Source: an uncultured euryarchaeote
GTDB taxonomy: Archaea; Thermoplasmatota; Poseidoniia; Poseidoniales; Poseidoniaceae
Direction: 5' to 3'
DNA length: 49,091 nucleotides
NCBI GenBank assembly: GCA_937897365.1
Contig: CALCOP010000126.1
Span: 1-49,091, forward strand
Under the pieces are notes generated by a model, which was not told the origin of the DNA, searched no databases, and saw only the letters and a list, made by a program, of their open reading frames with translations. Made by a program: the position numbers and the translations under genes. Below are positions 9,457 to 41,627 of the stretch, one piece after another (position 1 is the stretch's first letter; the number at the start of each line of letters is the position of its first letter).

Positions 9457-9635
9457 CTTGTAAAGCACTTGAACCCATCTCCACATGACACGAATTATTA
9501 GCCTCAAGGAGATGTTTTCATCCATTCCACAACTCAACTTTGAGGCAAATCGCCGTAGCTTCATCTTGGAAATATTCAACGAAAAGATAGAGATGAAGGG
9601 GAGCATTGAAGGATAACCGCACCCGTCATGTCTTC

Positions 9636-24856: not shown

Positions 24857-25492
24857 TCAGTCCTCTCCTACAATTACTGGCTTATCGCTGGCACGTTCGA
24901 TACTTGGAGCACCACCAATCCGAATTATTTTCTCACGCAGCAATCCAAAACCATCGATGAGGGCTTCAGGGCGAGGGGGGCAACCGGGAACATAGACATC
25001 CACAGGGATGACTGTGTCAACACCTTCGAGAATGTTGTAAGACTGGAAGTATGGTCCGCCAGAAATTGCACATTCTCCCATGGCGATACAATACTTTGGC
25101 TCAGGCATTTGCTCCCAAAGACGAACTACCTTGTCGGCGAATTTCTTTGAAATAGGGCCATTGATGAGTAAAACGTCAGACTGCCGGGGAGAGGAACGGA
25201 ACAATACTCCAAACCTGTCACCGTCAAACCGCGGTGTCGCTGCCGCAGCCATCTCGATAGCGCAGCATTTGATACCCAAGTGGAGCGTAAAGAGAGATTT
25301 GCGGCCCGCCCAGTTGAAGTAACGGCCAGCGAGAACACTGAGGAACTTCTTGATACGAGTTGCTTTGAGTGCTTCATCGGTAACTCCTCCAACCATTTCG
25401 ACCAGAGCTCGACTGTTGAACGCTGCAAAATTATCGCCTTCCGCCATCATGCCCACCTCAAATGTAAATGCGTCCTCGCTTGCGGAAAACAT
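24857..25492 (-). CDS. nuoB: NADH-quinone oxidoreductase subunit B (20-kDa, N2 cluster)
   Basis: GIKCCAIEMAAA, SPRQSDVLLINGPI, MGECAISGGPY and YVPGCPPRPEAL. ATG 25492 overlaps nuoA by 35 nt. Alternative ATGs lie at 25450 and 25447 (MMAEGDNF). Confidence 0.9.
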   Translation of the reverse strand: MFSASEDAFTFEVGMMAEGDNFAAFNSRALVEMVGGVTDEALKATRIKKFLSVLAGRYFNWAGRKSLFTLHLGIKCCAIEMAAAATPRFDGDRFGVLFRSSPRQSDVLLINGPISKKFADKVVRLWEQMPEPKYCIAMGECAISGGPYFQSYNILEGVDTVIPVDVYVPGCPPRPEALIDGFGLLREKIIRIGGAPSIERASDKPVIVGED

Positions 25493-25943
25493 ACCAAACG
25501 CCTAACGACATAATGGCAAAGAAAAGACCGAGAAGAAGCAGAGCACTCTTCGCTTCATCAACCGCTCCGGCTGCTGCACCTGGAGATGTTGCATCAGATG
25601 CGACCATGCCCCCGAGAACAAGGAACATAAACGCAACATCGAAAACGAGGAAGATGATAGCATACCAGTAATATTGGAAATGGAATTGAATCATTGCATC
25701 CCCTACTGGCTCACTACCGCATTCAAAAGTAGTGAGGCGCCGTGGATAGAGGCTGTGATCGCGTTCATAGCCTTCAAGCAAATAGGAACGGGTGATATGA
25801 GGACGGGCTGGATCAACACGTGGCCGAACGACCCATGTGATAACGAAATTTGTCAACGGCATAATGATTCCAAGAACTGTCAAAAAACCAATTGACAGAT
25901 ACGCACTTGGAACTGATTCAAGCCCCGACATATTTTCACCCAT
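25458..25943 (-). CDS. nuoA: NADH-quinone oxidoreductase subunit A
   Basis: Three-TM protein with FECGSEPVGDAMIQFHFQYYWYAIIFLVFDV (NuoA/ND3 motif). First ATG is at 25943. The ORF track starts at TTG 25949. Confidence 0.8.
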   Translation of the reverse strand: MGENMSGLESVPSAYLSIGFLTVLGIIMPLTNFVITWVVRPRVDPARPHITRSYLLEGYERDHSLYPRRLTTFECGSEPVGDAMIQFHFQYYWYAIIFLVFDVAFMFLVLGGMVASDATSPGAAAGAVDEAKSALLLLGLFFAIMSLGVWYVFRKRGRIYI

Positions 25944-26069
25944 GTGCAAAGCATACGCTCGGCAATCTTTCCGACTTGAAGGTCCCCCATAAGTATTCCC
26001 AAATCATACATTCGAAAGTGAACGATATGAGTATGTGAAAACAAGAGTACTGCAAGGCATCAATTGTTT

Positions 26070-28997
26070 TCAGGAACGGCGTTGGCCGAAGATACTTCGA
26101 GAGGCAAAAACAATCAGTAAAATCACAGCCAAACCTGCTAACCCGTTATACATGGTTTCCTCTTGAATTCCAAGACCGAAGAGTCCTGCAGATACATCAC
26201 CGTTGACCGTAAATTCAATGTTTACTCGGTCCACGACTCCGGTTTCAACTGGCTCTGCAGAGAGTGTGAATTTGTATGTATCAGCAACTTCGGCACCAAC
26301 CGGGGTTCGAATTGTAACCTGAATCTGCAAAGATTGGCCAACTTCGACATCGCAGATAAATTCTGTAATATCTTGTTCGCAGGAATCTTGGCCATTTGGC
26401 TCGTCCAGAACGACGTTCCAACCACGGAAACTTTCCGAGGTGAAGACGAGAACTTCCGCATCGACATTGCCCGTGTTCGTAAGGTTCACAATAAACTCTT
26501 CTTCATTCGAATATTCAACATCAAATTCAGTGGCTGTTTGTTCACGGTCAAATTCAAACTCGTAGATGATTTGAACGTCAAGAGAAATATCAAAATGGCC
26601 AGATCTATTTGCAGCATTCTTCGTGCTCAATACGACCAATTCGAGAAGGCCACCATCACCCGTTGATGCACTTGGATTGACAGTGATTTCAAGTTCAAAA
26701 TACAATTCAAAAGGACGAGCGTCATAACCGCCGGCACAATATCCGAGTGCACACATCTGTGTTTCAGCGGAATCCTTTGTAGCTCCGATCACAGGTTCTC
26801 CGGAGGCGTCAACGAGGAATCGGCTGTTGTTTTGATCCCAAATACCAAAACCAACTGGAACCGTGAACTCACCGTCGACTGTAAGGCCGTAGAGTGTTAT
26901 CTCTCGAGTCGCAAGACCTTCAAGTCCTGAGATATCAAACACCGCTTGGTCCTTTCCATCTCCAGTATTTTGCACCCAGAAGCCGTATGTCTGAGTGCCA
27001 GATGGTGGAAGGAGTGCCGAGCCTGAGCGTTGGTCCAAACCCCCATCAACTAAGCGCACGTCCATCGAAAATACGCGGTCTGATAAAATGGCGAGGAAGA
27101 CAAATTCTCGTTGGTTGTCAGGTAAACCGTCACCGTTTTCGTCGCCCGAATTTGAGGTGTCATCTTTGTTGATTATGCGTACTGTCAGCCTGCTGGACGA
27201 GAGCTCTTCCTCGCCATCAATACTGACGACCATGAAGACTTGAGTTGAACTCTGCGGTGCAATGGCAATTCCTTGTGAAGAGGAAATGATGTTACCATTG
27301 CTGTCTTCACAGTAGACATCCCACTCTGGTGAAGCAGTCTGGTCTTGCTCAATACATCGATAATTATCTTCAATGTTTCCAGTATTTTGAATCGTTATTG
27401 GGAACTTCACAAGAGATCCTGAACGACCTGTTTGTTCGAGTGCAGTTGCTTGCGCTTCAATCCCATGAATCGCCTTTACCGTAACGGTGAGGGTGACTTC
27501 AGCATATGCGACTCCACCTCCAGCAGGTAAGACTGAAAAAGCGATTGATATTTGCTCTGTAGCCAGTGCATTACTTGGAACATTGACGACAAATGCTACA
27601 TTTTCACTCTTTTCCGAACCGTGCTTGGAGCCAACGGAAACGGTGGTTGAGTCGAGTTGCACACTCCAACCCGAAGGTGGTGCTGAAGCGGAAATTCGAA
27701 GGTTATCTACACCGTTCCCTTGGTTTGTAACCGTGAGGGTCGCAGTGCCATTCGAGCCTGGCTCGATGTTTGAGAGCATCGAAGTTGAAAGCGAGAGGCT
27801 TGCCCCGAAAGACTGACCTACAATGACTCTCAGTTCTTGAGAACATTTGACCGTGTTTCCGTCTTTCGCTTGGATTTGAATCACGGATTCATCCCCAGCA
27901 GTGACAGAATCATCGGGAGTAACTACAATATCGAATGATTTCGTACCGTCTCCGTCAGAATACGGTAAGATTCCAGAGGATGCTCCGTCATAGTTCACCC
28001 ATCCCGAACGGCTACCTGCTTTCGCCATTGAAACCGACCAGTCACTGTTTCCTGTATTCGAGAGAGTTGCGGTTAAACTGGCTTCATCATCAGGGTCAAC
28101 AGTCATACTGGTTTTCGATAAAACCATAGAGCATTCATGTAATTCTGGCACGGTTAAATCAAAATCTTCGACATCCGATGCTTCTTGGGAAGGGTCACTG
28201 GTAACCGTTCCAGTAATCTCCCAACAATATTTGTTCGCCTCTTGGCCTGCGGGGACTTCGACTGAGACGGTCACCGTTTCGGTTTCGTTTTGGTCCAGCG
28301 ATACTGTCTCCTCATCCAAGTCGACAGTGAGGTCGTCAGCATTTTGACAACCATTACCTCCTGTCTCATCAACAGAAAGAGCGATTGTTTCATTGGTTTG
28401 GCCCGTATTCTCAACGATGATGTCATACTCAATGACCGATTCACCAGCCCATTGCTGGCTGCGTTGGGATTCTGACGCCATAGACAAGTCAACACCAAAT
28501 ACTGCAGAGCCGGAACCATCGCCAGCTGTTGTTGTCACAATTTTCGTTTCTGTAGCGGGTTGACCAGCAACTTCTGGTGGTGTCGGCGCTTCAGTAGCCT
28601 GTGCGGTAATGGTCGTGTCGCAACTTCCTTCAGCGGTTTGTGTCAACGTTACGTTCATCGTTGTTTCACCGTAATCATTGGATTCAATAACGCCCGGAAT
28701 TTGCTGGATATTTGATGAATATGCGCCACATTCTTGCGTAGCTTCTTCGCTTGAAGAAAGTGAAATAGTGACTGCAGTAGGACCATTGTTGTATATTCTG
28801 ACCGTGTATTCTCCCGCTTCACCAGGGTTCACTTCAAGCCCGTTTGAAGGCGATGTTTGAATCGAAATACTTGCGTCACGACCGCCATCTGCACCGACCG
28901 TCGGTGTAAACATAGGTACAACCGAGAGAATTAGGAGACCGACAAGGAAGATTGCACGTTTTGAGGCGTGCGCGGTGTTTATTTCTCGGGGGTCCAT
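26070..28997 (-). CDS. Large surface protein with NEW3/CARDB-like repeats and a C-terminal TM anchor
   Basis: ATG 28997 gives MDPREINTAHASKRAIFLVGLLILSVVPMFTPTVGADG (signal). Repeated modules of the type NPGEAGEYTVRIYNNGPTAVTISL, PGSNGTATLTVTNQGNGVDNLRISASAPPSGWSV and GSLVKFPITIQNTGNIEDNY. C-terminus GLAGLAVILLIVFASRSIFGQRRS. Confidence 0.75.
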   Translation of the reverse strand: MDPREINTAHASKRAIFLVGLLILSVVPMFTPTVGADGGRDASISIQTSPSNGLEVNPGEAGEYTVRIYNNGPTAVTISLSSSEEATQECGAYSSNIQQIPGVIESNDYGETTMNVTLTQTAEGSCDTTITAQATEAPTPPEVAGQPATETKIVTTTAGDGSGSAVFGVDLSMASESQRSQQWAGESVIEYDIIVENTGQTNETIALSVDETGGNGCQNADDLTVDLDEETVSLDQNETETVTVSVEVPAGQEANKYCWEITGTVTSDPSQEASDVEDFDLTVPELHECSMVLSKTSMTVDPDDEASLTATLSNTGNSDWSVSMAKAGSRSGWVNYDGASSGILPYSDGDGTKSFDIVVTPDDSVTAGDESVIQIQAKDGNTVKCSQELRVIVGQSFGASLSLSTSMLSNIEPGSNGTATLTVTNQGNGVDNLRISASAPPSGWSVQLDSTTVSVGSKHGSEKSENVAFVVNVPSNALATEQISIAFSVLPAGGGVAYAEVTLTVTVKAIHGIEAQATALEQTGRSGSLVKFPITIQNTGNIEDNYRCIEQDQTASPEWDVYCEDSNGNIISSSQGIAIAPQSSTQVFMVVSIDGEEELSSSRLTVRIINKDDTSNSGDENGDGLPDNQREFVFLAILSDRVFSMDVRLVDGGLDQRSGSALLPPSGTQTYGFWVQNTGDGKDQAVFDISGLEGLATREITLYGLTVDGEFTVPVGFGIWDQNNSRFLVDASGEPVIGATKDSAETQMCALGYCAGGYDARPFELYFELEITVNPSASTGDGGLLELVVLSTKNAANRSGHFDISLDVQIIYEFEFDREQTATEFDVEYSNEEEFIVNLTNTGNVDAEVLVFTSESFRGWNVVLDEPNGQDSCEQDITEFICDVEVGQSLQIQVTIRTPVGAEVADTYKFTLSAEPVETGVVDRVNIEFTVNGDVSAGLFGLGIQEETMYNGLAGLAVILLIVFASRSIFGQRRS

Positions 28998-29070
28998 GAC
29001 CCCCGGTGGCGGCCTTACTATCAAAAGACTACCCTTCGATGACTCAAGGAAATCAAACAAGGTTATGAAA

Positions 29071-32000
29071 TCATGCCTCTACGAATGAAGACACATCAGT
29101 TTGACAATTCATGCATTGCGTTAGCGCATTTGAAGAACAAGATGGGTGGTCGGCACGATGGTAACGGGCTCCACAACCAGGGCATCCAAGCATTCCTCCC
29201 GTAATTTCACCTCGACAAGACCAACACAAAGGCCCTTTTTTCGCTGTTTGCTCAAGAGGTGCAATCGGTTTGAGAGAAGGAAGCGCATTGATGCGAGCGG
29301 GGATGTTTGGCATCGGAAGTGGAGGCCGTGTAGCCGATTTCGGTTTTCTTTGAGTGAAAATTACTGTTCCGATCAAAAGGGCGACAAGAACGACGCCCAC
29401 GAGGATACTACCTATCGGTAATGATTGTCCTGAAGTCCCGATGGGTTCTCCCTCCGAGGTGACTTGTAATTCAATCGAGGAATTGATCATGCCATCAGCG
29501 CCTTGTAATCCGAGAGAAAGAATGCCATCACCAGGCAGGTCAGCCCGGACGAGGAGTCGGATTTTCATCGATTCTCCAGGTTCCAAATTCGCAATGTCAT
29601 TTCCGTCGATTTCAGCTTCCCAATTTTTAGATTCTTCAAGGACTAATTTATGCGAAAAGGCAACATTTCCTGCGTTCAGTAAAGTGACTTCCAATTCTTC
29701 TTGAAGGCCAGTGGAAAACGGCGTGTTACGTTCTTGAACCCATGCGGACTCAATCACAGTAGCGACTCGAAGACCAATGTTTTCAGTGTATTCTACACCT
29801 CCACCGTCGAGTTTGAGCACGAAAGAGGGTTCACTCATCGGAGCCATTCCAGTGGATATCAGAATCGTGCACGTTACCGGTGAGACATCGCCGTATCCAA
29901 TCGGCTCAATTGCTGAACAGTCACCAAACAAACCGTTACTCAAAGAGACGGAGGCGGTTGGCTGCCATTCTACATCGGCTTCATTTCCAATCAGCCATGT
30001 AAACATGAGTGGTACACCAGCCGGATGAGAGCCTTCGCCAAACGGCGTATCCCATGATGTTCCGTCTTGCAGTGCGAGGTTCACAAATCCAAGAGTAGGT
30101 TGGGCAAGTGCCTCGACGTTAAATTGCCCTACCCATGTGATTCGTTCAGTTCCACTATCAAGATGAAGTTTCACTTCTCCGGAAGTTCCACTTCCGTCAC
30201 CCGAGATTCCAAACAAGAGATTCTTCGAAGTAGACCACGGAAGGTCAAACGGTTCTATTTCCGAAGTGACTGACCAGCCTGATGGAAGTTCAAATGAGGG
30301 TGTAAAGGACAAGTCAACATTACCCCTGTGTTCCAACGAAAAGAGCATGCTGAAGAATGAATCGGGCCGAAGGACACCGAGGTTCGTCTCTAAATCAACG
30401 TCAACCTGTTTGACCGTTTCAATTTTGATTGGAATATCAAAAATCCACGTTTCGGTGATCTCAGTCTGGGAAATCGCAGTTAAGCGCACCATTCGTTCAG
30501 CACCTGCTGCAGTCATGACCTGAGGGGGTGTGAAAGACATACCAATAACGCGATGACTGTCTTTGACAATCAGACCTGTCGAACCCGAACTTGCGCCGGG
30601 CACACTGGATAAGGTGTCGAAACCAGCATCCCAGCCAGCAGGAGCTTCGAGGAATAAATCATAGCCGATGTCAGCATTTCCGATATTGAAGAGGCGAATG
30701 TCAATACTTGTTGGATCAGTTGGAGACACCGGTACGATTTGATAATCATACTCAAGACGGAGATTTGGAATGTCAGGTACTTCAAGATACAGCATGTAAG
30801 GATAAGAAACACCGTTATCGACATCAATACCAAGTAAATCGACACGATACAAACCGGGTAAAGGTGGAGTGGGGTGAACCAAAGTGACAACAATTTCAGC
30901 TGAATCTTGACCAGAGAGGGTGAAGTTTGATTCATTGGCTCCGACATACCATGATTCGGTCTGACCTGTATCTTCATTCATGACACTCTGAGTAAGCAAA
31001 CTGGCATTGGTAGATACCAACGCCGTATTGGTAAGCGTGAGGTTCCATGATGATGTCGACTGACTGGTGTTGAGCAAGACGAGCGATTGAGGTTCGGCAG
31101 AAAGTTTGACGCCTGGAGCCGTGACGTTCACCGAAATATCGTGACGATTGTTGTTTTCAAGTATCTCCTCGATTTCATCGCTTGGATCTATAATGAAAGA
31201 AACGGTTGACTGCCCTGCAATTTGAGGAGTCCAATACCAGATTTGAGTTTTTGATGAACCGGCGCCAAGATCGATATTCTTACTATCGATTTCAACGCCA
31301 TCCACTTCTAAAACAATATCGAAATAATCTGCACGAACATTGCCCACATTGAACACCTTTGAAGTCAATTGCAGTTGATCTCCAACCTGAGGGATCGTCA
31401 CCGACATGGAAAATTCATCTTCGAGTATTGTTGGGTCTGGGCGCAAATCGTTCACGCCATGACCCATAACTGCAATGGCAAACGGCTGAGCTTTGCTACC
31501 TCCGTGATACGCATCTTTCACTTTCACCGTCCATACTCCAAGTTCCGCATTATCGACCAACACGACTTCGACATTGTTGATGCCGTCAGCACTTCCACCT
31601 GTTGTCGAACGACCGTTTGCAAAATCGTTTCCAAGATATATCTCGCCACTTGGGGTTGTCACCTCGATATCGAGATTATTGACTAACTGTGTACTGGAAA
31701 ACGGTGAGCCTCGTTCGTCAGACCATGCCAGTACTGTTTTGAATCCTGAATTCGCTTGAGAGATGTTAAACGTGTAACTCTTCGAATTACCAGTTCCTGA
31801 GAGTACCGAGCGGTCATCAACCCAAATGCCTTGACCCGAAGTTGGTGCAAGCGTATTTCGTAAATCGACCCTTCCCCAGCCTTCATCATCATTGGGGATA
31901 TTACGAGAACCAATGTCTTGGGCACCGAGAATCAACAGGGCCTTTACCAGCGCTCCTTGGGGTGCAGGTCGTTGTGCAATTTCTTCGAGGTATTCACGAA

Positions 32001-33615
32001 TCATTACCGCAGCACCTGCAGCGTTTGGTGTCGCCATTGAAGTTCCAGTGTATTCAAGATAGTAGGTATTCGACCATGTCGAACTGCCGGTATCCGTTGC
32101 CTCCTGAGCACGACAAGAACGAACGTAACCGCCTGGGGCGAGAATGTCTGGTTTGATTCGGCCGTCATCGGTTGGTCCACGAGATGAACCTGACATGATT
32201 GAATCTGGAGCACCCGAATATCGGTTTTGATGGTTACCAACAGTAATCGTATTTTTCGCAGTTGATGGAGCACCAACAGTACCTGAGTCAGGTCCATCGT
32301 TGCCAGCAGCAAAGAGGATTGTTAAGCCATTGCGCCCGTTGTAGTATCGGTCATAATAATTCGCGCGGTCATCGACATCTTCGCTCTCAGATGTGTATTT
32401 ACCTTGGTCACTTTCAAGTGCGGAACCCCACGAATTTGTGTGCGTATAAGCACCAGCAGAGTAAGCACTATTGAGCAAATAATTGAGAGAAGGTGATTGG
32501 AAATTACCAGTGTTATCATTTTCCATGGCTTGGAAATACAGTTCTGAAGCTGTAGCAACTCCAGAGTATCCGCCTTGCGATCCGTCACCAAGAACAGTAC
32601 ATGCAACATGCGTTCCATGACCGGAGTGTTTGTCAGCCGTAGAACCGTCGCCAATGACGTCATTGTTGGCAACAACTCGGTTGCCAAAGTCGCCATGATC
32701 TGCATCGAGACCTGAGTCTGCAACGGCGACTATTTGGCCAGAACCATCAAGATCGGTGGTAAAATAACTGGTCATCTGGGAGGTTTTCATGTGATTACGT
32801 GCTTGGCTGTTGTCGATACTTATGGTTGGTTCAAAACGAAATGTACGCAGCGAAGGTTGGGATACAATTCCAACAATGTCTTCTGTAGAAAGAACGCCTT
32901 GGTAACGACCGGCATCCCATTGACGGGATTCAGAAAAAGCAAGGGGGAGAAGTTCGGAAACTTTCTGAACGAGTTGAGAGCCGGCTGCATCAACGAATGT
33001 GACCGAGTCCATTGGACCCTCATTATTTCTCCAACCTTCTATTCGCATCGATTGGCCTTGCAATGCTTGCTCCCCGCCGTCAAGGAGTAAAACATCGAGG
33101 ACCGGTTCATCGACGAGAAGCGCTAAAGGGACGGAATGTTGAGCAAGTACGCCTTCAACAGAAACGATACTGGCAAGAGCGAACGGGGTTCCTTGAACCA
33201 GCAGCCCTGAAGGAGCAATCAATTCCCGAACCTCGAGTCCGGGTATATCATCGAGGGCAAAACGCATATCCAACATCAACATCTCGTTTGAGACGAGAAC
33301 TAAACTCAAATCGAGACGAGGCTGTAACCATTCGCTGGGGACCGGACGATTGAGTTGCAAACCATGAATGTCAAAGGTCCCAATACGACTTGAGGCAGTA
33401 TGATCACGAGGTTCACTTGTCGAAGTGAAATCACTGTAACCAACCGCATCTGAATAAACGCCATCTCTCAAATCGAACTGCACCCATTCGATACCACCTG
33501 TATCTTCCATTTCGACGGAATCCACCCCTTTGGGGTGGAGTAAAGGAGACATGCTTTGCAAAACAAAGAGAGAGATGAGGGCGACTGCCCAGAGCATCGA
33601 ACGCTTGACTTGCAC
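29071..33615 (-). CDS. Membrane-anchored subtilisin-like serine protease (peptidase S8) with CARDB/NEW3 repeats and a cytoplasmic zinc-ribbon tail
   Basis: Catalytic triad contexts VAVADSGLDADHGDF (Asp), HSGHGTHVACTV (His) and GTSMATPNAAGAAVMI (Ser). CARDB-like VGDQLQLTSKVFNVGNVRADYFDIVLEVDG...EILENNN. TM helix IGSILVGVVLVALLIGTVIF. Tail CWSC..CPGC..CMNC. GGAGG lies 8 nt upstream of GTG 33615, with an alternative ATG at 33597. Confidence 0.85.
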   Translation of the reverse strand: MQVKRSMLWAVALISLFVLQSMSPLLHPKGVDSVEMEDTGGIEWVQFDLRDGVYSDAVGYSDFTSTSEPRDHTASSRIGTFDIHGLQLNRPVPSEWLQPRLDLSLVLVSNEMLMLDMRFALDDIPGLEVRELIAPSGLLVQGTPFALASIVSVEGVLAQHSVPLALLVDEPVLDVLLLDGGEQALQGQSMRIEGWRNNEGPMDSVTFVDAAGSQLVQKVSELLPLAFSESRQWDAGRYQGVLSTEDIVGIVSQPSLRTFRFEPTISIDNSQARNHMKTSQMTSYFTTDLDGSGQIVAVADSGLDADHGDFGNRVVANNDVIGDGSTADKHSGHGTHVACTVLGDGSQGGYSGVATASELYFQAMENDNTGNFQSPSLNYLLNSAYSAGAYTHTNSWGSALESDQGKYTSESEDVDDRANYYDRYYNGRNGLTILFAAGNDGPDSGTVGAPSTAKNTITVGNHQNRYSGAPDSIMSGSSRGPTDDGRIKPDILAPGGYVRSCRAQEATDTGSSTWSNTYYLEYTGTSMATPNAAGAAVMIREYLEEIAQRPAPQGALVKALLILGAQDIGSRNIPNDDEGWGRVDLRNTLAPTSGQGIWVDDRSVLSGTGNSKSYTFNISQANSGFKTVLAWSDERGSPFSSTQLVNNLDIEVTTPSGEIYLGNDFANGRSTTGGSADGINNVEVVLVDNAELGVWTVKVKDAYHGGSKAQPFAIAVMGHGVNDLRPDPTILEDEFSMSVTIPQVGDQLQLTSKVFNVGNVRADYFDIVLEVDGVEIDSKNIDLGAGSSKTQIWYWTPQIAGQSTVSFIIDPSDEIEEILENNNRHDISVNVTAPGVKLSAEPQSLVLLNTSQSTSSWNLTLTNTALVSTNASLLTQSVMNEDTGQTESWYVGANESNFTLSGQDSAEIVVTLVHPTPPLPGLYRVDLLGIDVDNGVSYPYMLYLEVPDIPNLRLEYDYQIVPVSPTDPTSIDIRLFNIGNADIGYDLFLEAPAGWDAGFDTLSSVPGASSGSTGLIVKDSHRVIGMSFTPPQVMTAAGAERMVRLTAISQTEITETWIFDIPIKIETVKQVDVDLETNLGVLRPDSFFSMLFSLEHRGNVDLSFTPSFELPSGWSVTSEIEPFDLPWSTSKNLLFGISGDGSGTSGEVKLHLDSGTERITWVGQFNVEALAQPTLGFVNLALQDGTSWDTPFGEGSHPAGVPLMFTWLIGNEADVEWQPTASVSLSNGLFGDCSAIEPIGYGDVSPVTCTILISTGMAPMSEPSFVLKLDGGGVEYTENIGLRVATVIESAWVQERNTPFSTGLQEELEVTLLNAGNVAFSHKLVLEESKNWEAEIDGNDIANLEPGESMKIRLLVRADLPGDGILSLGLQGADGMINSSIELQVTSEGEPIGTSGQSLPIGSILVGVVLVALLIGTVIFTQRKPKSATRPPLPMPNIPARINALPSLKPIAPLEQTAKKGPLCWSCRGEITGGMLGCPGCGARYHRADHPSCSSNALTQCMNCQTDVSSFVEA

Positions 33616-33676
33616 ATTTGGTCCTCCCTTCGCCCCGTTTTATCGCTATGGGTATTTTGGGTAGTGAAAAAGCAAT

Positions 33677-34342
33677 TCAAGAAATTGGCCATGTCGTTCT
33701 GTCTGCCTTATCTCTAAAGTATTCATTGCTCCAAACTCCAACAGAATGCGACCACTCTTCGTTCTGAATATTGTTGTTGTAATCTGTGTATTGAAGGTCA
33801 ATAGAAATGATATATTCAGCCCACACAGTATGGCCAATAATCAACATCTCAAGTTTATCACCTGCAAGTGATGAATGCGCATCTATTTCATCGACCGAAA
33901 TAGACATCACGCCAAGAACTTCACCATCAAGGGATTGGAATTCAATTTGCACAGACACATCGGTAATTTCTCGACTACCAACATTGTGTATCTCTGACAT
34001 TAACAAATGTCCGCCTCGTTGAAGATATTGCGTTTCAATATCAACCGCATCTCGTGGTAAAGCCCAGTACCATCCACTGGCCATTACCCCGATGAGAAGA
34101 AGGAATACAATCCCCGCTAAGGCCACCCGACTTGGGCTTACCTCTCGGCGAATCAATTCAATTGCCTTCGACACTTTTTGCATATCTTCATATGTTTCAA
34201 TCCCATCTTCGTCCAGCGAATAACCAAGGGATTCAATTTTTTGTAAACGTGCAACATCAAGTAATCCTACCGACTCAATATCATCTTCATGAACCAACAT
34301 ATCTCCATGTTCGTTGAAGGCAATCTTACTTTCGTCAATCAT
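33677..34342 (-). CDS. Single-pass membrane protein with an acidic N-terminal domain and a CARDB-like ectodomain
   Basis: ATG 34342 (MIDESKIAF...) lies 4 nt after the stop of the 1567-aa gene. TM helix VALAGIVFLLLIGVMASGWYWAL. C-terminal beta domain with IHNVGSREITDVSVQIEF. The ORF-track start at 34444 overlaps the upstream gene. Confidence 0.5.
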   Translation of the reverse strand: MIDESKIAFNEHGDMLVHEDDIESVGLLDVARLQKIESLGYSLDEDGIETYEDMQKVSKAIELIRREVSPSRVALAGIVFLLLIGVMASGWYWALPRDAVDIETQYLQRGGHLLMSEIHNVGSREITDVSVQIEFQSLDGEVLGVMSISVDEIDAHSSLAGDKLEMLIIGHTVWAEYIISIDLQYTDYNNNIQNEEWSHSVGVWSNEYFRDKADRTTWPIS

Positions 34343-34346
34343 TCTA

Positions 34347-37300
34347 TCACCACAAAAGGGCCAAACCACTGGCGATGGCGGTCGTAATCGGTTCCACCAA
34401 GAGGATGTGTCGTGTCTCAACACTGTCTCCAGTAAGTGAACCAATGAGTGAAAGGTCAGTAACCATACCGTTTACTCCGAACGATGAAGCTGTTGGAATT
34501 GGACCGGTAAACTGAGCATCGAGCAAAACTGCACGACCGCTGAACGAAAATCCTTCAAGGAATCCTGTCATGTAATAGGGTTCAACGGTTGCTTCTGAAC
34601 TGGCAACAATACGTCCGTTTGTGATGTCATCAAGAACAATCACTGGATATTGGAATGGACCCATGTAGACATGAATTGTAGCCGATTTAAGGTCCTGTCC
34701 AATCACCTCAATACGATCGATAGTCACACCTGGAGTCGAGGGTAAGTCGGTTTGTTTGATGTAAAGTCGACTTACGCCTTGGCCTGAAGATGCAACTCTC
34801 ATCCCCCAGTCATCTGTGGTCTGAAGAACGAAGGTCGAAGGCAAATCTTCTGCCAACAGCAGCACATCGCCTTTGAAATCTACAGAACGCCCTGTGGCCT
34901 CAAGATACAAATCCATATCATCTGTGTTTGATTTGTAATCCAATTCCATCATTCCTTGGAAAGATATATCTGCGCGGATATCGAAGTTGGAATTGGGTTG
35001 CGCAGCGAGCGCCATTTCACCCGGCAAATCACGCATAAAAACAGTTGCTGGCCACCAAAATCCATCAACATAACGCATTTGCTGAATCATGAGTGATTGT
35101 GCTGAGTGACCATCGATTTGATATTGTGGAGGGACATCAACCTCGATGAGGAAAATATCTCCAACGGTTGATGAAAATGTCATCGCTTGTGGGACGTCAA
35201 CAATGAGCGCCTCTACACGACTTAGGGCACGTCTGTCGATAAAGACTGCATGAACAGAATCCAACTGCGTACCCAAATCATAACTCATATCGATTGACAC
35301 TCGAGGGACAGTGAGGTTATCTTGAGTAGAAAATAAGGTGTTTGCAAACACATTATTTGGTCCACTTGTATCAAGTCCTGCGATGACAATTTCCATGTCT
35401 CTGCCTTCTAAACCGTTCACAATGATGCTCATTTGTTGGCGCTCTGGCGTCCATTGTTCTAAGAAGAGGTCAAACTCATACAATGGAATTCCATCTCTCA
35501 TCCGGAAATCATATTCCAAAAGAATTCTCCCCGGAGGTAAATTCGGTAGCCATGAACGCAAATGCCAAGATCTTCGAAGCTCATAGGTAATACCTTGCTC
35601 CTCCCAAAGACTTCGATTTGCTCCTTCCATTTCTGATTCTAAAATAACACCGTCTTCAAGCGCCAAAAGGAGTTGTGAAATATTGGAAATATTTGCTGCA
35701 TCGGCTTCTTGTAATACCGCCTGATATTCGTCTTTAGAAATCTTGTAATCGGCTAACGCATCATTGACAATTGTCCGGCTCGAAAGAGTGAATGTAGGCA
35801 TTCGAGACAAGTTAAATGTCACCTTTGATGCTTCGAAAACTTCCATCCCAATACCGTGCGACCACTCCGGTTCCTCGAGAATGTTGGTTCCTTTGCGAAC
35901 ATCCATCGTCACATCAAAAGCCTCACCTGTTTGTAAATCAAGACCCAAAGACATGTTTTCATCGCCGGTTTCAATGCCCCCCAAATCAACGATTGTCGAG
36001 TAGACAAAGTCGTTGACTAAGGAACCAAAGTTCACCAAATCTCCAAGGAAAAATGAAAGAGCTTGGACACCATCGCCTTCATCAAATGTGGGTAATTCCA
36101 GACCCGACGAGTCAACTCCGCTCGGATAGGCAACAGTGATGTTGGCAGGTAACGGATCAATGGCGATTCGTCCATTCATGCCCTTGAAAGAGTCGTCATA
36201 TTCTGTTTCATCTTCAAGAAGAATATTCATCGGCGAGGATTGTGAACGAAGTAATTCAATTCGTGAATTTCCTTCCGGTCCATTTGCACCTGGGTCAAGA
36301 GGAGAAAGACGCCGAATGCTTGTTACATCTGAAATTTCTGTGCTTAAACTGGTTTCTCCAGTCGCTTCGTCAACCCAGAAGCGGAAATGGTCACCATCCA
36401 TGGTGAAAGGTTGTGTAGCGTTGGTGAGTTGTACTTCTATCGATTCCATCGGCGTTGCAGCAACATATCCGACGGTATCGCCGAGAATCAGTTGGAACGA
36501 AGAGGGGAGGCCGTTCAATCGAATTGCATTACGTTGGCCGTCACCATCCCCTCCATAGGTAATCGTACCTATCGGACCTGATGCGGCATACGTGAGCGCT
36601 TCAGCAGTTTGTGTCACATTGAAAGTACTCGGACGGTTTGAAAGTGTCGCCGATTGTTGATTTGCAGAAACAATATCACCGTCATCATGTAAGATATGAC
36701 CAATCAAAAATGGACCACTATCAACACCTTGTAATTCCATTTGACGAACATCGTTGATTGGATCATAATCATGGGTGACGCTTGAAATTCCGCCTATTCG
36801 GGCACTCATAGCCACAGGAACCAATGGTTCTTGCAGCCCTCCAATTCGAGAGTTTACTTGCTTAATGTTCGTATCTTCGGAGAGCAAAATGTGATCAATA
36901 TCCGGCAGCCATGGTTGGTCACTGCTTGAAATTGCAATTGAAACAGAACCTATTTCCATGGGTTCACGAACCGAAGTTGGGAGGCTTTGCTTGACTTGAT
37001 TGTAACAATTAAGCCTCACTGCTCCACCTGTCGCACCGGCTGTTCCCACAATCGACTCGGGGAGGCCGTTCACAACATCACCTACATCGAGAATCACCTC
37101 GACAATCGTCAACAGAGCGTTATCGAAGACCTGAGCAATTGTATTGAGATTTGGATTATCATAATTCACGCGACTCAAGCCACTTTCTGGAATTTCAAAA
37201 CTACCCTCGACAATGATCACCTTCGGTACATTCGCAATGCTCAGTTGAATGGATGAAGAATCGCTTGCATAACCACCGCGCATGAATGTTGATTTGTAAT

Positions 37301-39050
37301 CCAGGAAGTCAATCGATTCGGTAGCTACAATCGCCACTAAGGTATTGGGCGGATTGGCAGGGTTGACTGGAAGTGTTGGATCATCAACATTGTTCAAGCT
37401 ATCACCGGAGAAATTTTTGATAGCAATAATCATGGAGAGACGACTGGGAATGTCTCCTGGAAGGTCGGTACCTCCAGGCTCCTCACCAATCATCGTAAAA
37501 ACAGCCGCAATTTCATCAGGATGTAATGTACCCGACGGCAAACCACGAATCCAAGAGCGAGAATCCGTTACATTTCCGAATGGCGAGTCACCTTCTGTAG
37601 TGTTTGAACGATCTTCGAAATAATGAAGATACATATCTGCACCGATATCGGAGAAAATTTCAACAGTATCGAACGTGTTTTGTCCGAGGTTATCATTACG
37701 TAATGTGATGTCAACTTCGTTTGGAATTCGAGTTTCACCGACCTCTGGATGGAAACTCGCGTCGATGTATGCTGTCTCAAGTATCGGGGCTGTAGTACCT
37801 CCACCATAACCATCAAAGCGAATAAATCCAACACCGAGTCCAAAACCACATTTATGGTCGTGGCTGTGTGCTTGATGGTCAAGAATTGGGTCGTAATATG
37901 AAGTTCCGTCGTTACAGTCTGATTGTCGATTTGAACTGTCAGCGTCTGGATTTGAAGCGCGAATAGCGTAAGGCGCTGAAATCGATGTTAAACTGAGTGC
38001 TGAAGCATTGATTTGTCCGGTGGTGAGTGAACTGATGAATTGCAAAACATTCGTGATAACAGCATTGACACTAAAGGTCATTTTCTGAAGACCAACTCCG
38101 AGCGTGAATTGATGAGGAGGTTGGGTGAAACGGGTGTCAATAATAACTGCATACGATTCTGAATCATCAAGAGTGAGATCAAACGCCAAACCTTTCATCA
38201 AACTCACTTCAAGATGAGACATGTTGTTCCACAAGAAGTCGTTTTGATTGAGAGCGGTTACCTTCCACTGGAAAGTCGGTCGTATCCACACCTCTTCGAC
38301 GCATGGAAGGGTTGCAGGGGGGATGCCACAATCACCTAATTCAATGCCAAAGCCATCTCCTTGCGTGATGATTCCTTCGATCGTCAAACCGACCGAAAGA
38401 TCGTCGACTGAGTCGCCATCGATATCGATGTAATTATTGAACAGGACAATTTCAGTGCCAACAAGAAGTTCACCGGTAAAGGTTCCTTCAACCCATGCTT
38501 CATGAGACGGACCGTTATCCCTCGATGAGAAGTTTACATACACGGCATACGTGTTAATTCCAATTCCCAACGGGTTGTTCAGTCCGAGTGATTGAACTGA
38601 AAATAAGGTCTCAAACAAATTGTATGGCCAGCCATCAGGCTGCGTGGAAGCGTCCATGAGAAATTCATACGGGCGAGGGTGGTCGGCGACAAATGGTGAC
38701 GAATCCCTCAATTCCAATCCGTCAAGATAACCGCTTGCTTCCGAGAGCGGGTCTGTTGAATCAATCGGCCTTTGGGCAAGGTCAACGGCATTCAAAGCAT
38801 CGATTGCCCCCTGAGAAGCAACACTCGCCTCGTCATTGTCCGTGCGTTTAGATAATGTATCATCCAATTCATCCAAGACCCCGAAGTCGTTCCGAGAAAC
38901 AGAAAGGTTCGCACTGGCAGGCTGTGTCAGTGATATTAACATCAGAAAAACGAGGAGAACCGCCATTCGGCGCGGGTCAGAATTTTGAGGCAAACCAACG
39001 CGAATTAAGCGCGGTTGACTCTCTACCATGAAAGAAGGATGACCCCCCAC
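34347..39050 (-). CDS. Giant secreted protein (about 1540-1567 aa) with no domain I can recognise
   Basis: An uninterrupted 4.7-kb ORF. Signal-like DPRRMAVLLVFLMLISLTQPASANLS. Possible starts are GTG 39050, ATG 39029 and ATG 38966. Acidic, beta-rich, with recurring xLPxxhxhxh segments. Short hydrophobic C-terminus PITTAIASGLALLW. Confidence 0.7.
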   Translation of the reverse strand: MGGHPSFMVESQPRLIRVGLPQNSDPRRMAVLLVFLMLISLTQPASANLSVSRNDFGVLDELDDTLSKRTDNDEASVASQGAIDALNAVDLAQRPIDSTDPLSEASGYLDGLELRDSSPFVADHPRPYEFLMDASTQPDGWPYNLFETLFSVQSLGLNNPLGIGINTYAVYVNFSSRDNGPSHEAWVEGTFTGELLVGTEIVLFNNYIDIDGDSVDDLSVGLTIEGIITQGDGFGIELGDCGIPPATLPCVEEVWIRPTFQWKVTALNQNDFLWNNMSHLEVSLMKGLAFDLTLDDSESYAVIIDTRFTQPPHQFTLGVGLQKMTFSVNAVITNVLQFISSLTTGQINASALSLTSISAPYAIRASNPDADSSNRQSDCNDGTSYYDPILDHQAHSHDHKCGFGLGVGFIRFDGYGGGTTAPILETAYIDASFHPEVGETRIPNEVDITLRNDNLGQNTFDTVEIFSDIGADMYLHYFEDRSNTTEGDSPFGNVTDSRSWIRGLPSGTLHPDEIAAVFTMIGEEPGGTDLPGDIPSRLSMIIAIKNFSGDSLNNVDDPTLPVNPANPPNTLVAIVATESIDFLDYKSTFMRGGYASDSSSIQLSIANVPKVIIVEGSFEIPESGLSRVNYDNPNLNTIAQVFDNALLTIVEVILDVGDVVNGLPESIVGTAGATGGAVRLNCYNQVKQSLPTSVREPMEIGSVSIAISSSDQPWLPDIDHILLSEDTNIKQVNSRIGGLQEPLVPVAMSARIGGISSVTHDYDPINDVRQMELQGVDSGPFLIGHILHDDGDIVSANQQSATLSNRPSTFNVTQTAEALTYAASGPIGTITYGGDGDGQRNAIRLNGLPSSFQLILGDTVGYVAATPMESIEVQLTNATQPFTMDGDHFRFWVDEATGETSLSTEISDVTSIRRLSPLDPGANGPEGNSRIELLRSQSSPMNILLEDETEYDDSFKGMNGRIAIDPLPANITVAYPSGVDSSGLELPTFDEGDGVQALSFFLGDLVNFGSLVNDFVYSTIVDLGGIETGDENMSLGLDLQTGEAFDVTMDVRKGTNILEEPEWSHGIGMEVFEASKVTFNLSRMPTFTLSSRTIVNDALADYKISKDEYQAVLQEADAANISNISQLLLALEDGVILESEMEGANRSLWEEQGITYELRRSWHLRSWLPNLPPGRILLEYDFRMRDGIPLYEFDLFLEQWTPERQQMSIIVNGLEGRDMEIVIAGLDTSGPNNVFANTLFSTQDNLTVPRVSIDMSYDLGTQLDSVHAVFIDRRALSRVEALIVDVPQAMTFSSTVGDIFLIEVDVPPQYQIDGHSAQSLMIQQMRYVDGFWWPATVFMRDLPGEMALAAQPNSNFDIRADISFQGMMELDYKSNTDDMDLYLEATGRSVDFKGDVLLLAEDLPSTFVLQTTDDWGMRVASSGQGVSRLYIKQTDLPSTPGVTIDRIEVIGQDLKSATIHVYMGPFQYPVIVLDDITNGRIVASSEATVEPYYMTGFLEGFSFSGRAVLLDAQFTGPIPTASSFGVNGMVTDLSLIGSLTGDSVETRHILLVEPITTAIASGLALLW

Positions 39051-39077
39051 TATGAGAACCCATCCCCGTTATGCGTG

Positions 39078-39114
39078 AAAAATCAACTTATTTCGCATAC
39101 CGCCCTACGGGCGG
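39078..39114 (-). terminator. GC-rich hairpin plus T5 run between the PKD-protein gene and the giant ORF
   Basis: CCGCCC-TAC-GGGCGG at 39100-39114, starting 5 nt after the stop at 39120. On the minus strand it is followed by GATTTTTCAC (A-run 39078-39082 on plus). Confidence 0.4.
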
Positions 39115-39119
39115 AATAA

Positions 39120-41582
39120 TCACAACGAAACCGTTGTATCACGTGAACAGGTCGGACAAGCGACAACAATCGCATCTGCGCCCGGTGGGATTTGAACATC
39201 AAAAATAACTCCACAGCCATTGCATGTTACGCTCCGAGTGAGGGGTTCAGGTTGTGTTTCGGATTGGGTGATATCCTGAACGACTTTTGGAGATGTCGCC
39301 TGAACGCCTTCAGGAAGTGAGACGCCCCCACTCTTTACCACAGTTTGCGGTGCAGAAGAAGTGTATGTTTCACCACTCATTTGCGGAGTCTGCATCGTTG
39401 GCTGAGTCAAGGGTACGGGTGTTTCATCGTTAAACAATGCCAGAGCATCAGCAGCAGCGGCTTGACTGCCCTGAGAAATGGTTTGCTGAGTAAATGAAGG
39501 AGGTGCAAAACCGCTGTTCATTTGCGTTTCACTCGGTGTCTGTTCACCATAAATGGCAGCCATCTCCGCAGCCTTCTCTTGCTCAAGTCTCGATGATGAT
39601 GACTGAACTTCACCTGCATCAAGTCCGGCAAGAACAACCGCTGAAGAAAACAGAGGGATTTTGCGAGTGCTCGCAACCGTTGCCATGTGGGCTTCGGCCT
39701 CCAATTCACTCAATCCCCTTCCAATCAACAACTCTTTTGCAATTCCGTTCTGCCAGCGTCGATGTCCAAGTAGAGCAATCCCCATCGTGAGAGTTCCGAT
39801 AAACAGGACCATGAGTAAAATTCCAGCAATACTCCCCTTTTCCGGAGGCGCTTCGATGGTGATGGTAAATGCATGACTATCCGAGTTATTCGATTGATCA
39901 AAAACGGTTACCACCACATCATATTTGCCCGCCTTAGAAAATTCAATTTCCGTTGAAGAACCCGTTTCGTCTGCATCATCTCTTGGATTGCCATTACTAT
40001 CTAAATCAACATCTGGATTAAGGTCCCAATGATAACGTAAAACCGATTCTGAGTCGTAGCTATCGGTTGCTTGAACGACGAAAGTCATGGCGTCACCAAC
40101 CTGGCCAGTTGATGGAAGTTGGTCAAGACTGGGTCGTTCCAGAACAGGTTTTGTCGTGTCAGTGACAAGTAATGTCGTAGAAATACTGTTGGAATTACCA
40201 GAGGCGTCGCTCACCGTTAGCATGACTTCATGAGTTCCGATATCAGCCCATGAGAAAGAAACTGAACTGTTCTGTCCATAAGGGGAGCCGTCTAAGTTCC
40301 ACGCACACATGCTGATGAGATGGTCGTCTGAGCTTCCATCGCAATTGAGGACAAGAGTATCACCAGTGTTAAGTTTCCAACCCCCGGCAATTGGCTGCCC
40401 GTTACCTCCTATGCGTGCGACTGGATTCATTACATCAAGAACAGAAATTACCGAGCTTGTTGATGCTGATGAACCCGTTGGAGAGGACACAGTTAGTGTA
40501 ACTGTGCGGTCACCGGGTGTGTTCCAAATGGCTACCGCATCCCAACCAATCGCATCTTGGTCATTGGTAAAATCGCCGTCTGCGTTCGCATCGACTTCTG
40601 CATCAAAATCCCACGATGCGGACGCAATCTGATTCAATCGGTTCGGCGTTGAATACGCATCGAAAGTCACAGGATTACCAACTGCAGTGGTTGAGTTACT
40701 GTCATCGGAAAGAATGGGATTTAATTGGGGTGCAAGTTCAACACGAACAGTCATCCTCACGTGACTTTCGCCATTCGCTCCACCAACCGGTGTATCGGTA
40801 TTGTCGGCAATGAGAATCAACTCTTCGCCGTCTAATTCATTTGGAACAATCCACGAAAATGAGGAAGAACCGTCAATCGATTGTAGCGATGCCCCTGTGA
40901 TGTAGAGGGAGCCGACGCCTCCGGACGAATAGAGATCGTTCATGGCTCGAGTTTGCAAATAAATGTCACCATTTCCTTCGAGCGACCATGCAGTAACAAC
41001 GACACTGGTTCCCGCATCAAGTTGCAAATCATCTCCCGAAAGCAATGTTTCAGAGGAGGAGTTTTCAATGGCAATAAGGTTGTGAAACGGCGTCCAATAA
41101 GAGTCCGTTAATTTAGAAATCGTCAAACTTGCACGACTGTCAACTCCACCTTGGTCACCCATTCCTTGGTCACCGGAATGCGCTGTATTGTCAAAGACGA
41201 TGTACCATGCTTTGGCATTGATTGAGGCGGGTACTTGCCAGTGGAATTGATAACTTCCGAGGGCAGATTCTGTCGAAGGTATCTGTTCGAACAAATTACG
41301 ATACGACTGTCCAAGGTCGTAAGGTTGTATCGAGTTTTGGTCAAACACCAAGACATCCAACTCATCTTGACTCACGATAATGGAAAGATCGTAGACGTCA
41401 CCGGGCGTTAAAACCCCGAGATTAATTTTGATGCAAGCGCCATCACCGATGACCGTCGCGCTGGAAAATGAACTCGGCGTGTCGTTCAAGCAGCCGGGTT
41501 CAGCACGACCTTGGTCTGCTAAAGTGGATGACGGAATCAGCATCACACAAAGTAGGATTGCGACAAGCACTGAGGAACGCAT
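39120..41582 (-). CDS. PKD-domain surface protein with a TM helix and a 214-aa cytoplasmic tail ending in a zinc ribbon
   Basis: ATG 41582 gives MRSSVLVAILLCVMLIPSSTLA (signal). PKD-type repeats (WDFDAEVDANADGDF...GDRTVTLTVSS; WNLDGSPYG...GTHEVMLTVSDASGN; WDLNPDVDLDSNG...GKYDVVVTVFDQSNN). TM helix IAGILLMVLFIGTLTMGIALLG. C-terminal CNGCG-x18-CPTCS. Confidence 0.8.
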   Translation of the reverse strand: MRSSVLVAILLCVMLIPSSTLADQGRAEPGCLNDTPSSFSSATVIGDGACIKINLGVLTPGDVYDLSIIVSQDELDVLVFDQNSIQPYDLGQSYRNLFEQIPSTESALGSYQFHWQVPASINAKAWYIVFDNTAHSGDQGMGDQGGVDSRASLTISKLTDSYWTPFHNLIAIENSSSETLLSGDDLQLDAGTSVVVTAWSLEGNGDIYLQTRAMNDLYSSGGVGSLYITGASLQSIDGSSSFSWIVPNELDGEELILIADNTDTPVGGANGESHVRMTVRVELAPQLNPILSDDSNSTTAVGNPVTFDAYSTPNRLNQIASASWDFDAEVDANADGDFTNDQDAIGWDAVAIWNTPGDRTVTLTVSSPTGSSASTSSVISVLDVMNPVARIGGNGQPIAGGWKLNTGDTLVLNCDGSSDDHLISMCAWNLDGSPYGQNSSVSFSWADIGTHEVMLTVSDASGNSNSISTTLLVTDTTKPVLERPSLDQLPSTGQVGDAMTFVVQATDSYDSESVLRYHWDLNPDVDLDSNGNPRDDADETGSSTEIEFSKAGKYDVVVTVFDQSNNSDSHAFTITIEAPPEKGSIAGILLMVLFIGTLTMGIALLGHRRWQNGIAKELLIGRGLSELEAEAHMATVASTRKIPLFSSAVVLAGLDAGEVQSSSSRLEQEKAAEMAAIYGEQTPSETQMNSGFAPPSFTQQTISQGSQAAAADALALFNDETPVPLTQPTMQTPQMSGETYTSSAPQTVVKSGGVSLPEGVQATSPKVVQDITQSETQPEPLTRSVTCNGCGVIFDVQIPPGADAIVVACPTCSRDTTVSL

Positions 41583-41627
41583 GCACTGCTGTAAGTCGTT
41601 AACCACTTCAATGATGTGGCCGTTTGC

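Follow-up and report, generated by a model that had tools for sequence, protein, structure and literature searches.

The order Poseidoniales is among the most abundant archaeal groups of the surface ocean; it is uncultured and is thought to live on proteins and lipids. In the SlaA/SlaB system of the Sulfolobales, a secreted, beta-rich protein of ~1400-1500 amino acids (aa) without an anchor is encoded upstream of a smaller, membrane-anchored partner. In tetrabrachion of Staphylothermus marinus, a surface scaffold of ~1500 aa carries a bound, large protease of the subtilisin family, STABLE. KP-43 and SubHal (1wmd, 5fax) are soluble secreted subtilases of ~430 aa, and the Gram-positive cell-envelope proteinases (PrtP/CEP, C5a peptidase and SpyCEP) are very large anchored S8 proteases with a string of beta-sandwich domains that cut external proteins. 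Here, five adjacent genes, termed A to E, were analyzed at 26070-41606 on the minus strand of contig CALCOP010000126.1 (assembly GCA_937897365.1), of which the stretch of 49,091 nucleotides (nt) analyzed here is called the window. The DNA belongs to a Marine Group IIa (MGIIa) archaeon whose nearest genomes, UBA91 and TMED99, are 92-93% identical. The A-E genes are a real, ancient, order-wide and vertically inherited surface gene block of the Poseidoniales, and its robust unit is the pair of B and C. Together with the protease D, this pair resembles both the canopy-plus-anchor and the scaffold-plus-protease kinds of system and belongs to neither.

The five minus-strand open reading frames (ORFs), with the domains, membrane helices and zinc-ribbon tails that the original prediction had assigned to them from the letters alone, were borne out by ORF, Pfam and NCBIfam checks. 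For comparison across relatives, one genome per GTDB species was scanned. Relatives of B were found in 154 species, and 80 loci were kept; individual loci are labeled with an L.

Gene B (34347-39029, minus strand) encodes a giant secreted protein of 1560 aa from the start MVESQ, and the maximal ORF reaches 39050 (at most 1567 aa). A secreted protein of ~1550 aa with no recognisable domain had been claimed here, and B has a signal peptide and gave zero Pfam or NCBIfam matches. The MVESQ start at 39029 was conserved among the relatives compared and leads into a signal peptide that has an AxA site; export via Sec is predicted. Export via Tat was rejected, since the 'RR' of the signal peptide varies to RK or RG in relatives. 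The protein contains 216 acidic versus 78 basic residues, 5 cysteines and 16 N-glycosylation sequons.

More than 300 homologues of B were found. Those listed were unnamed or 'hypothetical', and their named organisms were metagenome-assembled genomes (MAGs) of Poseidoniales or Poseidoniaceae; among the matches listed, 119 of 120 homologues were 1534-1574 aa long. A wide search with residues 30-1229 against 1.84 billion proteins returned 171 cluster representatives, including full-length relatives at 31-41% identity and remote ones at 25-26%. All named representatives were 'hypothetical protein' from Poseidoniales, Poseidoniia or Thermoplasmatota, and a Pfam scan of six remote homologues gave no match. 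B was present order-wide, with one locus per contig in the contigs examined. At the largest distance within the 80-locus set, identity to the window was 51-52% for B, 50-53% for D, 47% for C, 46% for E, 38-41% for A and 38-39% for the upstream MBL-fold protein. B therefore does not behave as a fast-evolving adhesin, because it stays well above A and MBL at equal distance.

Columns that were invariant over 26 homologues of B, remote ones included, were mostly G, P or D, and none was an invariant His, Glu or Cys. This pattern favors a structural or binding protein rather than an enzyme. The columns included an NYIDIDGD loop, which resembles a DxDxDG calcium site and is a candidate by this likeness. 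AlphaFold2 models were obtained for residues 20-1060 (mean predicted local distance difference test, pLDDT, 76.9; predicted template-modelling score, pTM, 0.75) and for residues 560-1539 (pLDDT 75.8, pTM 0.68). Both models were mainly beta with long strands. Their helical parts were two ~30-residue helices (near 609-641 and 967-996), a short helix at the C-terminus and, near 1061-1123, a helical insert that is variable. Thus, B appears from its conservation and models to be a constrained, folded and non-enzymatic-looking protein.

The structure search that had been proposed earlier was run for B, and it showed no likeness to any solved S-layer protein or array of immunoglobulin-like (Ig-like) domains. 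With both models against the PDB and one model against BFVD, the best Foldseek probability was 0.14-0.16, with template-modelling scores ≤0.1 on long alignments. The matches (TonB receptors, LptD, ApoB and teneurin) were generic long-strand beta proteins and were dismissed as noise, and a lipid-transfer (beta-taco) reading built on them was dropped. A profile of B gave 0 matches to PDB sequences at E up to 10, and hhalign detected no internal repeats. Because its confident models match nothing known, B is a well-behaved target for structure determination.

The C-terminal segment of B, HILLVEPITTAIASGLALLW, was kept across the family. Its counterpart in remote homologues is HYIVPEPITSLLSTLGESL or RYIIIPAPVLSYLLSQY, neither of which is a membrane helix. 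The idea of a sortase signal or C-terminal anchor was rejected, since the remote segment is non-hydrophobic and has no basic cluster. Conservation without hydrophobicity in the remote homologues therefore indicates that B has no anchor of its own.

Gene C (33677-34342, minus strand) encodes the 221-aa single-pass protein that had been expected, with its ATG 4 nt past the stop codon of B and one transmembrane helix at 73-91. No Pfam or NCBIfam family matched C, its ectodomain alone retrieved nothing at E up to 1, and a profile search with C retrieved only Poseidoniales hypothetical proteins. In nearly every one of ~75 loci, the B stop and the C ATG were 2-9 nt apart or overlapped. Distant lineages showed a 4-nt overlap or a gap of 0-12 nt, except for L090 with 28 nt. 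The small ORFs directly after remote B-like genes were homologous to C (blastp 1e-5 to 1e-41). C is thus predicted from this spacing to be translationally coupled to B.

The conserved parts of C were limited to the transmembrane helix and an ectodomain of ~120-125 aa, in which an 'N.G....V.V' motif of the kind typical for CARDB-like sandwiches occurs. The cytoplasmic N-terminus of C was acidic and variable, from a few residues to ~100. Therefore, the conserved job of C lies in and outside the membrane. Because B lacks an anchor and C is a coupled, membrane-anchored partner, C would be the simplest means of keeping B on the cell, and B and C very probably form an obligate pair in which C tethers B. 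The B-C family has not been described before and matches no known domain or fold. It occurs throughout the Poseidoniales and beyond this order, but only within Poseidoniia. No description of the A-E block was found in the literature on Marine Group II (MGII).

B or B-like genes were also observed near FtsZ or SMC genes in remote lineages and in MGIIb (L084:8841-15798, L088:7532-12134, L081:689-9967 and L086:10001-18473). Remote B-like genes were divergent from FtsZ and downstream of L11, Spt5 and SecE. In MGIIb, FtsZ lies three genes upstream of the B neighbourhood, and in L086 genes for a stand-alone double zinc-ribbon protein and for SMC come after the B-C pair. A cell-division link for B-C was rejected: the cytoplasmic part of C is nearly absent in the lineages with these neighbours, so the proximity is judged to be probably an ancestral neighbourhood with no functional meaning.

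The gene layout of B-C is that of SlaA/SlaB, with an anchor-less giant followed by a smaller membrane-anchored partner. However, B shows no Foldseek similarity in the PDB, no Ig-like array and no repeats. C has its transmembrane helix near the N-terminus and a small beta ectodomain, with no coiled-coil stalk. Known archaeal S-layer proteins are arrays of Ig-like domains, for example a 19-domain protein (bioRxiv 10.64898/2026.08.21.746120). B, having neither repeats nor a fold match, is therefore not built like them.

Gene D (29071-33615, minus strand) encodes the tethered subtilase, for which 1514 aa, CARDB/NEW3 repeats, a transmembrane helix and a zinc-ribbon tail had been proposed. All of these were present, except that the NEW3 match was only weak. 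Peptidase_S8 matched at 9.6e-44 (PF00082, 150.2 bits versus a cutoff of 21.8) and CARDB at 5.1e-12. D begins with a signal peptide and a region of ~290 aa, continues through a catalytic and beta-barrel part, CARDB and further Ig-like domains, and ends with a transmembrane helix at 1401-1419 and a zinc-ribbon tail with three CxxC motifs. The triad D300/H333/S526 lies in the motifs VAVADSG, HGTHVA and GTSMATP, with the oxyanion Asn in AAGN, so that Asp, His and Ser follow in the order of the S8 family. In orthologues from five lineages, the His and Ser motifs were kept in 5/5, and the Asp pattern and the oxyanion Asn pattern in 4/5 each.

By sequence comparison, residues 287-717 of D aligned end to end with the catalytic and following beta-barrel domain of the KP-43 type (1wmd_A 17-433/434, E 3e-74; 5fax_A 18-432/433, E 2e-74). 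D is therefore a predicted active KP-43-type subtilase with an intact triad. Unlike KP-43 and SubHal, it adds the N-terminal region, ~700 aa of CARDB/Ig-like repeats, the transmembrane helix and the zinc ribbon. As a very large anchored S8 protease with a beta-sandwich string, D is also like the Gram-positive cell-envelope proteinases, to which it showed weak sequence matches (7edd, 5xya and 31mr); these are of another catalytic subfamily, are anchored through LPXTG and sortase, and have no B-C-like neighbour. The combination of a ~1500-aa surface protein and a large subtilisin-family protease is shared with tetrabrachion/STABLE, the association of D with B being putative here. However, B has no long coiled coil, the longest predicted helices being ~30 residues rather than a stalk, and D, unlike STABLE, bears its own transmembrane anchor and cytoplasmic zinc ribbon.

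Gene E (26070-28997, minus strand; 975 aa from MDPRE) encodes an Ig-fold protein with NEW3/CARDB-like domains. The NEW3 repeats and C-terminal anchor that had been claimed for it were found (NEW3 3.9e-9; a C-terminal transmembrane helix with a short basic tail), together with a signal peptide and a match to the Ig-like fold FixG_C. E falls into the NCBIfam family NF041740 'choice-of-anchor T' (79.4 bits versus a cutoff of 70) in three stretches, the best at 321-509. The E repeats bear a weak likeness to the repeats of D's C-terminal half. In L039 (19944-23513), E is extended by a ~215-aa C-terminal multi-helix membrane domain matching DUF4234 (1.8e-5). An extension of this type occupies an extra ~750 nt between E and nuoA, and L008, L009, L040, L041, L059, L067, L071, L073, L075 and L080 had similar spacing. 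In L069 (10007-14193), a ~3.9-kb deletion fuses residues 1 to ~762 of D with the last 400 residues of E. The product is an 819-aa protease without transmembrane helix or zinc tail, and B-C is intact; either a genuine loss in nature or a collapse of related repeats during assembly could account for it.

Gene A (39120-41606, minus strand; 828 aa as an ORF, with the true start probably the ATG at 41582) had been described as a PKD-repeat protein with a transmembrane helix and a zinc-ribbon tail. In agreement with this, A has a signal peptide, a transmembrane helix at 595-613 and a 215-aa tail ending CNGC...CPTC. PKD_4 (4.7e-15, 55.8 bits, cutoff 27) and PKD (2.4e-12, 47.1 bits, cutoff 23.5) each matched in three stretches, which places A among PKD proteins. 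From these features, A would be a type I membrane protein whose long cytoplasmic tail closes with a zinc ribbon of the form CxxC...CPxC.

The shared cytoplasmic tails of two members had been taken as a sign of a common apparatus. Zinc-ribbon tails do occur on both A and D and were kept in A orthologues from 5/5 lineages and in D orthologues from 4/5, but they are not specific to the cluster. A surface protein gene at 6634-9606 (minus strand) encodes CARDB, a transmembrane helix and three cytoplasmic zinc ribbons, the first of which is homologous to the D tail (blastp 8e-5); both end DVSSF(F/V)E. Since this otherwise unrelated surface protein carries the same tail, the zinc ribbon seems to be a cytoplasmic module that surface proteins carry throughout the lineage, and not a mark of the block. 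At 9606-11441 (plus strand), the window encodes a Big_13 surface protein with a sorting-signal-like C-terminus.

To compare gene order, twelve window proteins were searched by tblastn against the 80 Poseidoniaceae loci, and the loci with enough flank were judged. The order and strand of A-B-C-D-E were the same in every informative locus, as the synteny check suggested with the original prediction had anticipated. The full conserved order on one strand was PRC, MBL, A, B, C, D, E, nuoA, nuoB and nuoC. Four Poseidoniales lineages further away, in which B is 31-41% identical, likewise had the A-B-C-D-E order. In the MGIIb-like loci L081-83, A is followed by B after 77 nt, C after 0 nt, D after 65 nt and E after 54 nt; these loci have rpl15e and PRC upstream with no MBL or RmuC, and nuoA after E. 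The MAG SIMO Bin 19-2 has the same order. L090 holds a complete A-E block with MBL. In L089 (44-14268), B overlaps A by 4 nt (GTGA), and C, D and E follow after 8, 8 and 5 nt; its D terminates soon after the transmembrane helix, without a zinc ribbon. In L087, a 3-Mb contig with 68% guanine plus cytosine, A and B are parted by four extra genes, of which two run on the opposite strand, and nuoA follows E. In the remote loci L084/85 and L086, a B-like gene and the small gene directly after it have no A, S8 protease or E nearby, and their neighbours are FtsZ, a Cas4-like nuclease, a zinc-ribbon protein and SMC, with no nuo.

Gene insertions or losses were seen at the rpl15e/PRC, PRC/A and A/B junctions, and the E extension before nuoA. 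None was seen inside B-C-D-E in ~90 loci, apart from the D/E deletion in the MAG of L069. One archaeal contig carrying A-B-C-D (L066, CALDQY010000067.1) is deposited as part of an 'uncultured Rhodobiaceae bacterium' MAG, a public record that was probably contaminated during binning.

The gaps between the genes of the window are short, as had been claimed, from 4 nt to ~90-150 nt, the upper figure hinging on the B start chosen. Co-direction had also been offered as a special sign. Every gene from 12214 to 45285 lies on the minus strand, so the common orientation of A-E is uninformative alone.

In MGIIa, intergenic DNA diverged between species apart from boxes at fixed distances from start codons. 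The predicted promoter before B, GGGATGGGTTCTCATAG, lies at 39050-39066 (minus strand), ~21 nt ahead of the MVESQ start codon. A TATA-like box before D, CCCATAGCGATAAAAC, lies at 33637-33652 (minus strand) with consensus (C/G)(C/G)(G/A)ATA(A/T)A, and was found in 49/53 loci at 21-24 nt (mostly 23-24) from the start. The TATA-like box before E, GTCTTTTGATAGTA, lies at 29016-29029 (minus strand) with consensus TT(T/A)TGATA(G/C), and was found in 55/58 loci, ~20 nt from the ATG at 28997. A box at 25987-25999 (minus strand) precedes nuoA by ~38 nt (35-40) in 50/61 loci. A conserved box before A at 41603-41618 (minus strand) lies over the MBL stop region, 21-36 nt ahead of the ATG at 41582, and a hairpin followed by a T-run lies directly past the A stop (39100-39114, minus strand). 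The spacing of the boxes fits archaeal TATA boxes of leaderless or short-leader mRNAs.

The boxes are candidate Marine Group II promoter elements and give a first look at promoters in this group. Conserved at fixed distances before B, D and E, they suggest separate transcripts in MGIIa, where the likely predicted units are A, B-C, D, E and nuo. The tight packing of L089 makes read-through possible in other lineages. For a single transcription unit, the 4-nt gap between B and C fits; the boxes before B, D and E in MGIIa stand against the 5-8 nt gaps of L089. A scan for bacterial promoters and terminators gave counts equal to the shuffled expectation, the models being bacterial and the host archaeal.

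Transcript levels were available for the MGIIb MAG SIMO Bin 19-2, which carries the orthologous block as genes 394-398 (Damashek et al. 2021, PMC9723583, supplement 4). As coverage per million reads (CPM) in two informative samples of this one MAG (sample 1 / sample 2; PMC9723583), the values were 0.17 / 0.11 for A, 0.13 / 0.10 for B, 0 / 0.08 for C, 0.13 / 0.04 for D and 0.17 / 0.20 for E, compared with 0.15 / 0.20 for nuoA, 1.24 / 0.33 for rpl15e and 6.8 / 2.1 for rpl44e. Therefore, A-E were transcribed at similar, average levels. Rate covariation was analyzed from pairwise distance matrices of 30 taxa, with the signal of MBL, nuoA, nuoB and PRC regressed out. The residual correlation among B, D and E was r 0.63-0.75, compared with 0.40 for A and ~0 for C. 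These values are suggestive only, count as weak evidence for joint work of B, D and E, and may stem solely from pressures that large ectodomains have in common.

The original prediction had taken A-E for one dedicated five-gene apparatus. The conserved order stood; the flanks are equally syntenic, A is split off in L087, remote lineages have B-C alone and the boxes are separate, so the claim held in part. The best explanation, in our view, is a tethered surface site at which B-C, D and E work together, and we hold it tentatively, as a reading that falls a little short of probable. B would be exported via Sec and, once outside, would adopt a large and mostly beta fold that is stabilised by calcium and carries no anchor. 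C may be translated from the mRNA of B in fixed proportion by translational coupling; it would cross the membrane once and hold B on the surface through its small ectodomain. D, a predicted subtilisin-type protease, would be tethered by its own helix beside B-C, and E and A would stand there as membrane-anchored Ig-fold proteins. In MGIIa, D, E, A and B-C would each be under their own promoters. B-C, D and E may share one place on the surface, either as a tethered site for protein capture and degradation or as a sparse, protease-carrying envelope scaffold.

That D and E work with B-C rather than merely beside it is possible, at a confidence just below the midpoint, and we are still less sure of this for A. 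We infer the binding of B to C, the contact with D and E, and the physiological role; the word 'scaffold' for B, used in the original prediction, is likewise what we infer. We do not think that the A-E products make up the main layer of the wall. Anchored subtilases of large size and surface proteins with Ig folds are commonplace, and the B-C pair is what is new. An explicit version, in which B-C is a new kind of archaeal envelope structure made of a calcium-stabilised giant ectoprotein, folded unlike any solved protein, and a dedicated single-pass anchor, and in which it organises the cell surface of Marine Group II and docks D and E for the capture and cutting of dissolved or particulate protein, seems rather unlikely to us. 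B-C and the adjoining protease are concrete candidates for the Poseidoniales envelope and for the handling of large substrates. If B-C does anchor or organise D, this would explain how the cells keep extracellular digestion at their own surface.

Several observations weigh against a shared site of B-C, D and E. The PRC, MBL and nuo flanks are as syntenic as the block, so that synteny alone proves little. B-C occurs without a nearby S8 protease or E in L084/85 and L086, four genes part A from B in L087, and the conserved boxes ahead of B, D and E in MGIIa look like promoters. The transcript figures come from two samples of a single MGIIb MAG. The covariation is inflated by shared ancestry and lacks an unlinked surface-protein control, and the distance matrix of C does not covary with that of B (r 0.08), C being short and only partly aligned.

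The main rival of the tethered site is frozen synteny. In this reading only B and C belong together, and a general extracellular protease (D) and Ig-fold adhesins (A and E), independent of the pair, merely sit beside it where the chromosome is rich in housekeeping genes and slow to rearrange. PRC, MBL and nuoA-C hold their places as faithfully as A-E, the likely start of A has a box placed similarly to those before B, D and E, and B-C stands alone in the remote loci. The window holds two further large surface-protein genes (6634-9606 and 9606-11441), so such genes are common in this genome. Furthermore, MGII MAGs carry one to four S8 copies each, interpreted as general peptide degradation (PMC6864105). 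However, no insertion was found inside B-C-D-E in ~90 loci, though the neighbouring junctions vary. L089 packs A-E with an overlap and gaps of 5-8 nt, which leaves no space for promoters between the genes, and the residual rates of B, D and E covary. We consider frozen synteny less likely than not, and take it seriously.

The comparison with SlaA/SlaB raises another reading, in which B-C is the S-layer of Marine Group II, with B as a SlaA-like canopy, C as a SlaB-like anchor and D as an S-layer-associated protease like STABLE. The giant anchor-less protein gene followed by a small membrane-anchored partner gene fits this arrangement, as do the acidic composition, the 16 sequons and the calcium-loop-like motif of B, its order-wide presence at one locus per contig examined, and the fact that no report of an S-layer protein was found in the literature on Poseidoniales. 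However, main S-layer genes are normally among the most transcribed, and B, unlike SlaA, is transcribed at an average level. Its coverage in MGIIb (0.13/0.10 CPM) is like that of nuoA and 3- to 50-fold under that of ribosomal protein genes (0.33-6.8), which argues weakly against B as the principal S-layer or wall protein. The fold speaks more clearly: B has no Foldseek similarity to solved S-layer proteins or Ig-like arrays (best probability 0.14, template-modelling score ≤0.1) and no repeated domains. B also changes at a slower rate than the neighbouring proteins, an unusual trait in a lattice protein that is exposed. The S-layer reading therefore fails on the fold and weakly on expression, and we consider it improbable.

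A single co-transcribed A-E operon for one stoichiometric apparatus is highly improbable and A-E are probably not one operon, since the short gaps of the window, the A/B overlap and 5-8 nt gaps for B-C, C-D and D-E in L089 and the similar transcript levels in one MGIIb MAG are outweighed by the TATA-like boxes that stand at a fixed spacing from the B, D and E starts in MGIIa, the hairpin and T-run past the A stop, the opposite-strand genes between A and B in L087 and the solitary B-C pairs of remote lineages.

The block lies among archaeal housekeeping genes. Downstream of the block lies the nuo operon, from nuoA (25458-25949) through antiporter-like subunits (14026-19681), followed by eIF-1A and RIO kinase genes. 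Upstream lie the genes for the MBL-fold protein, the PRC-barrel protein, RmuC and ribosomal protein L15e. A gene for a Cas4-like PD-(D/E)XK nuclease is present at 4758-5936 (plus strand), and another lies directly after the remote B-C pair of L084 (15982-16812); this recurrence is probably a coincidence.

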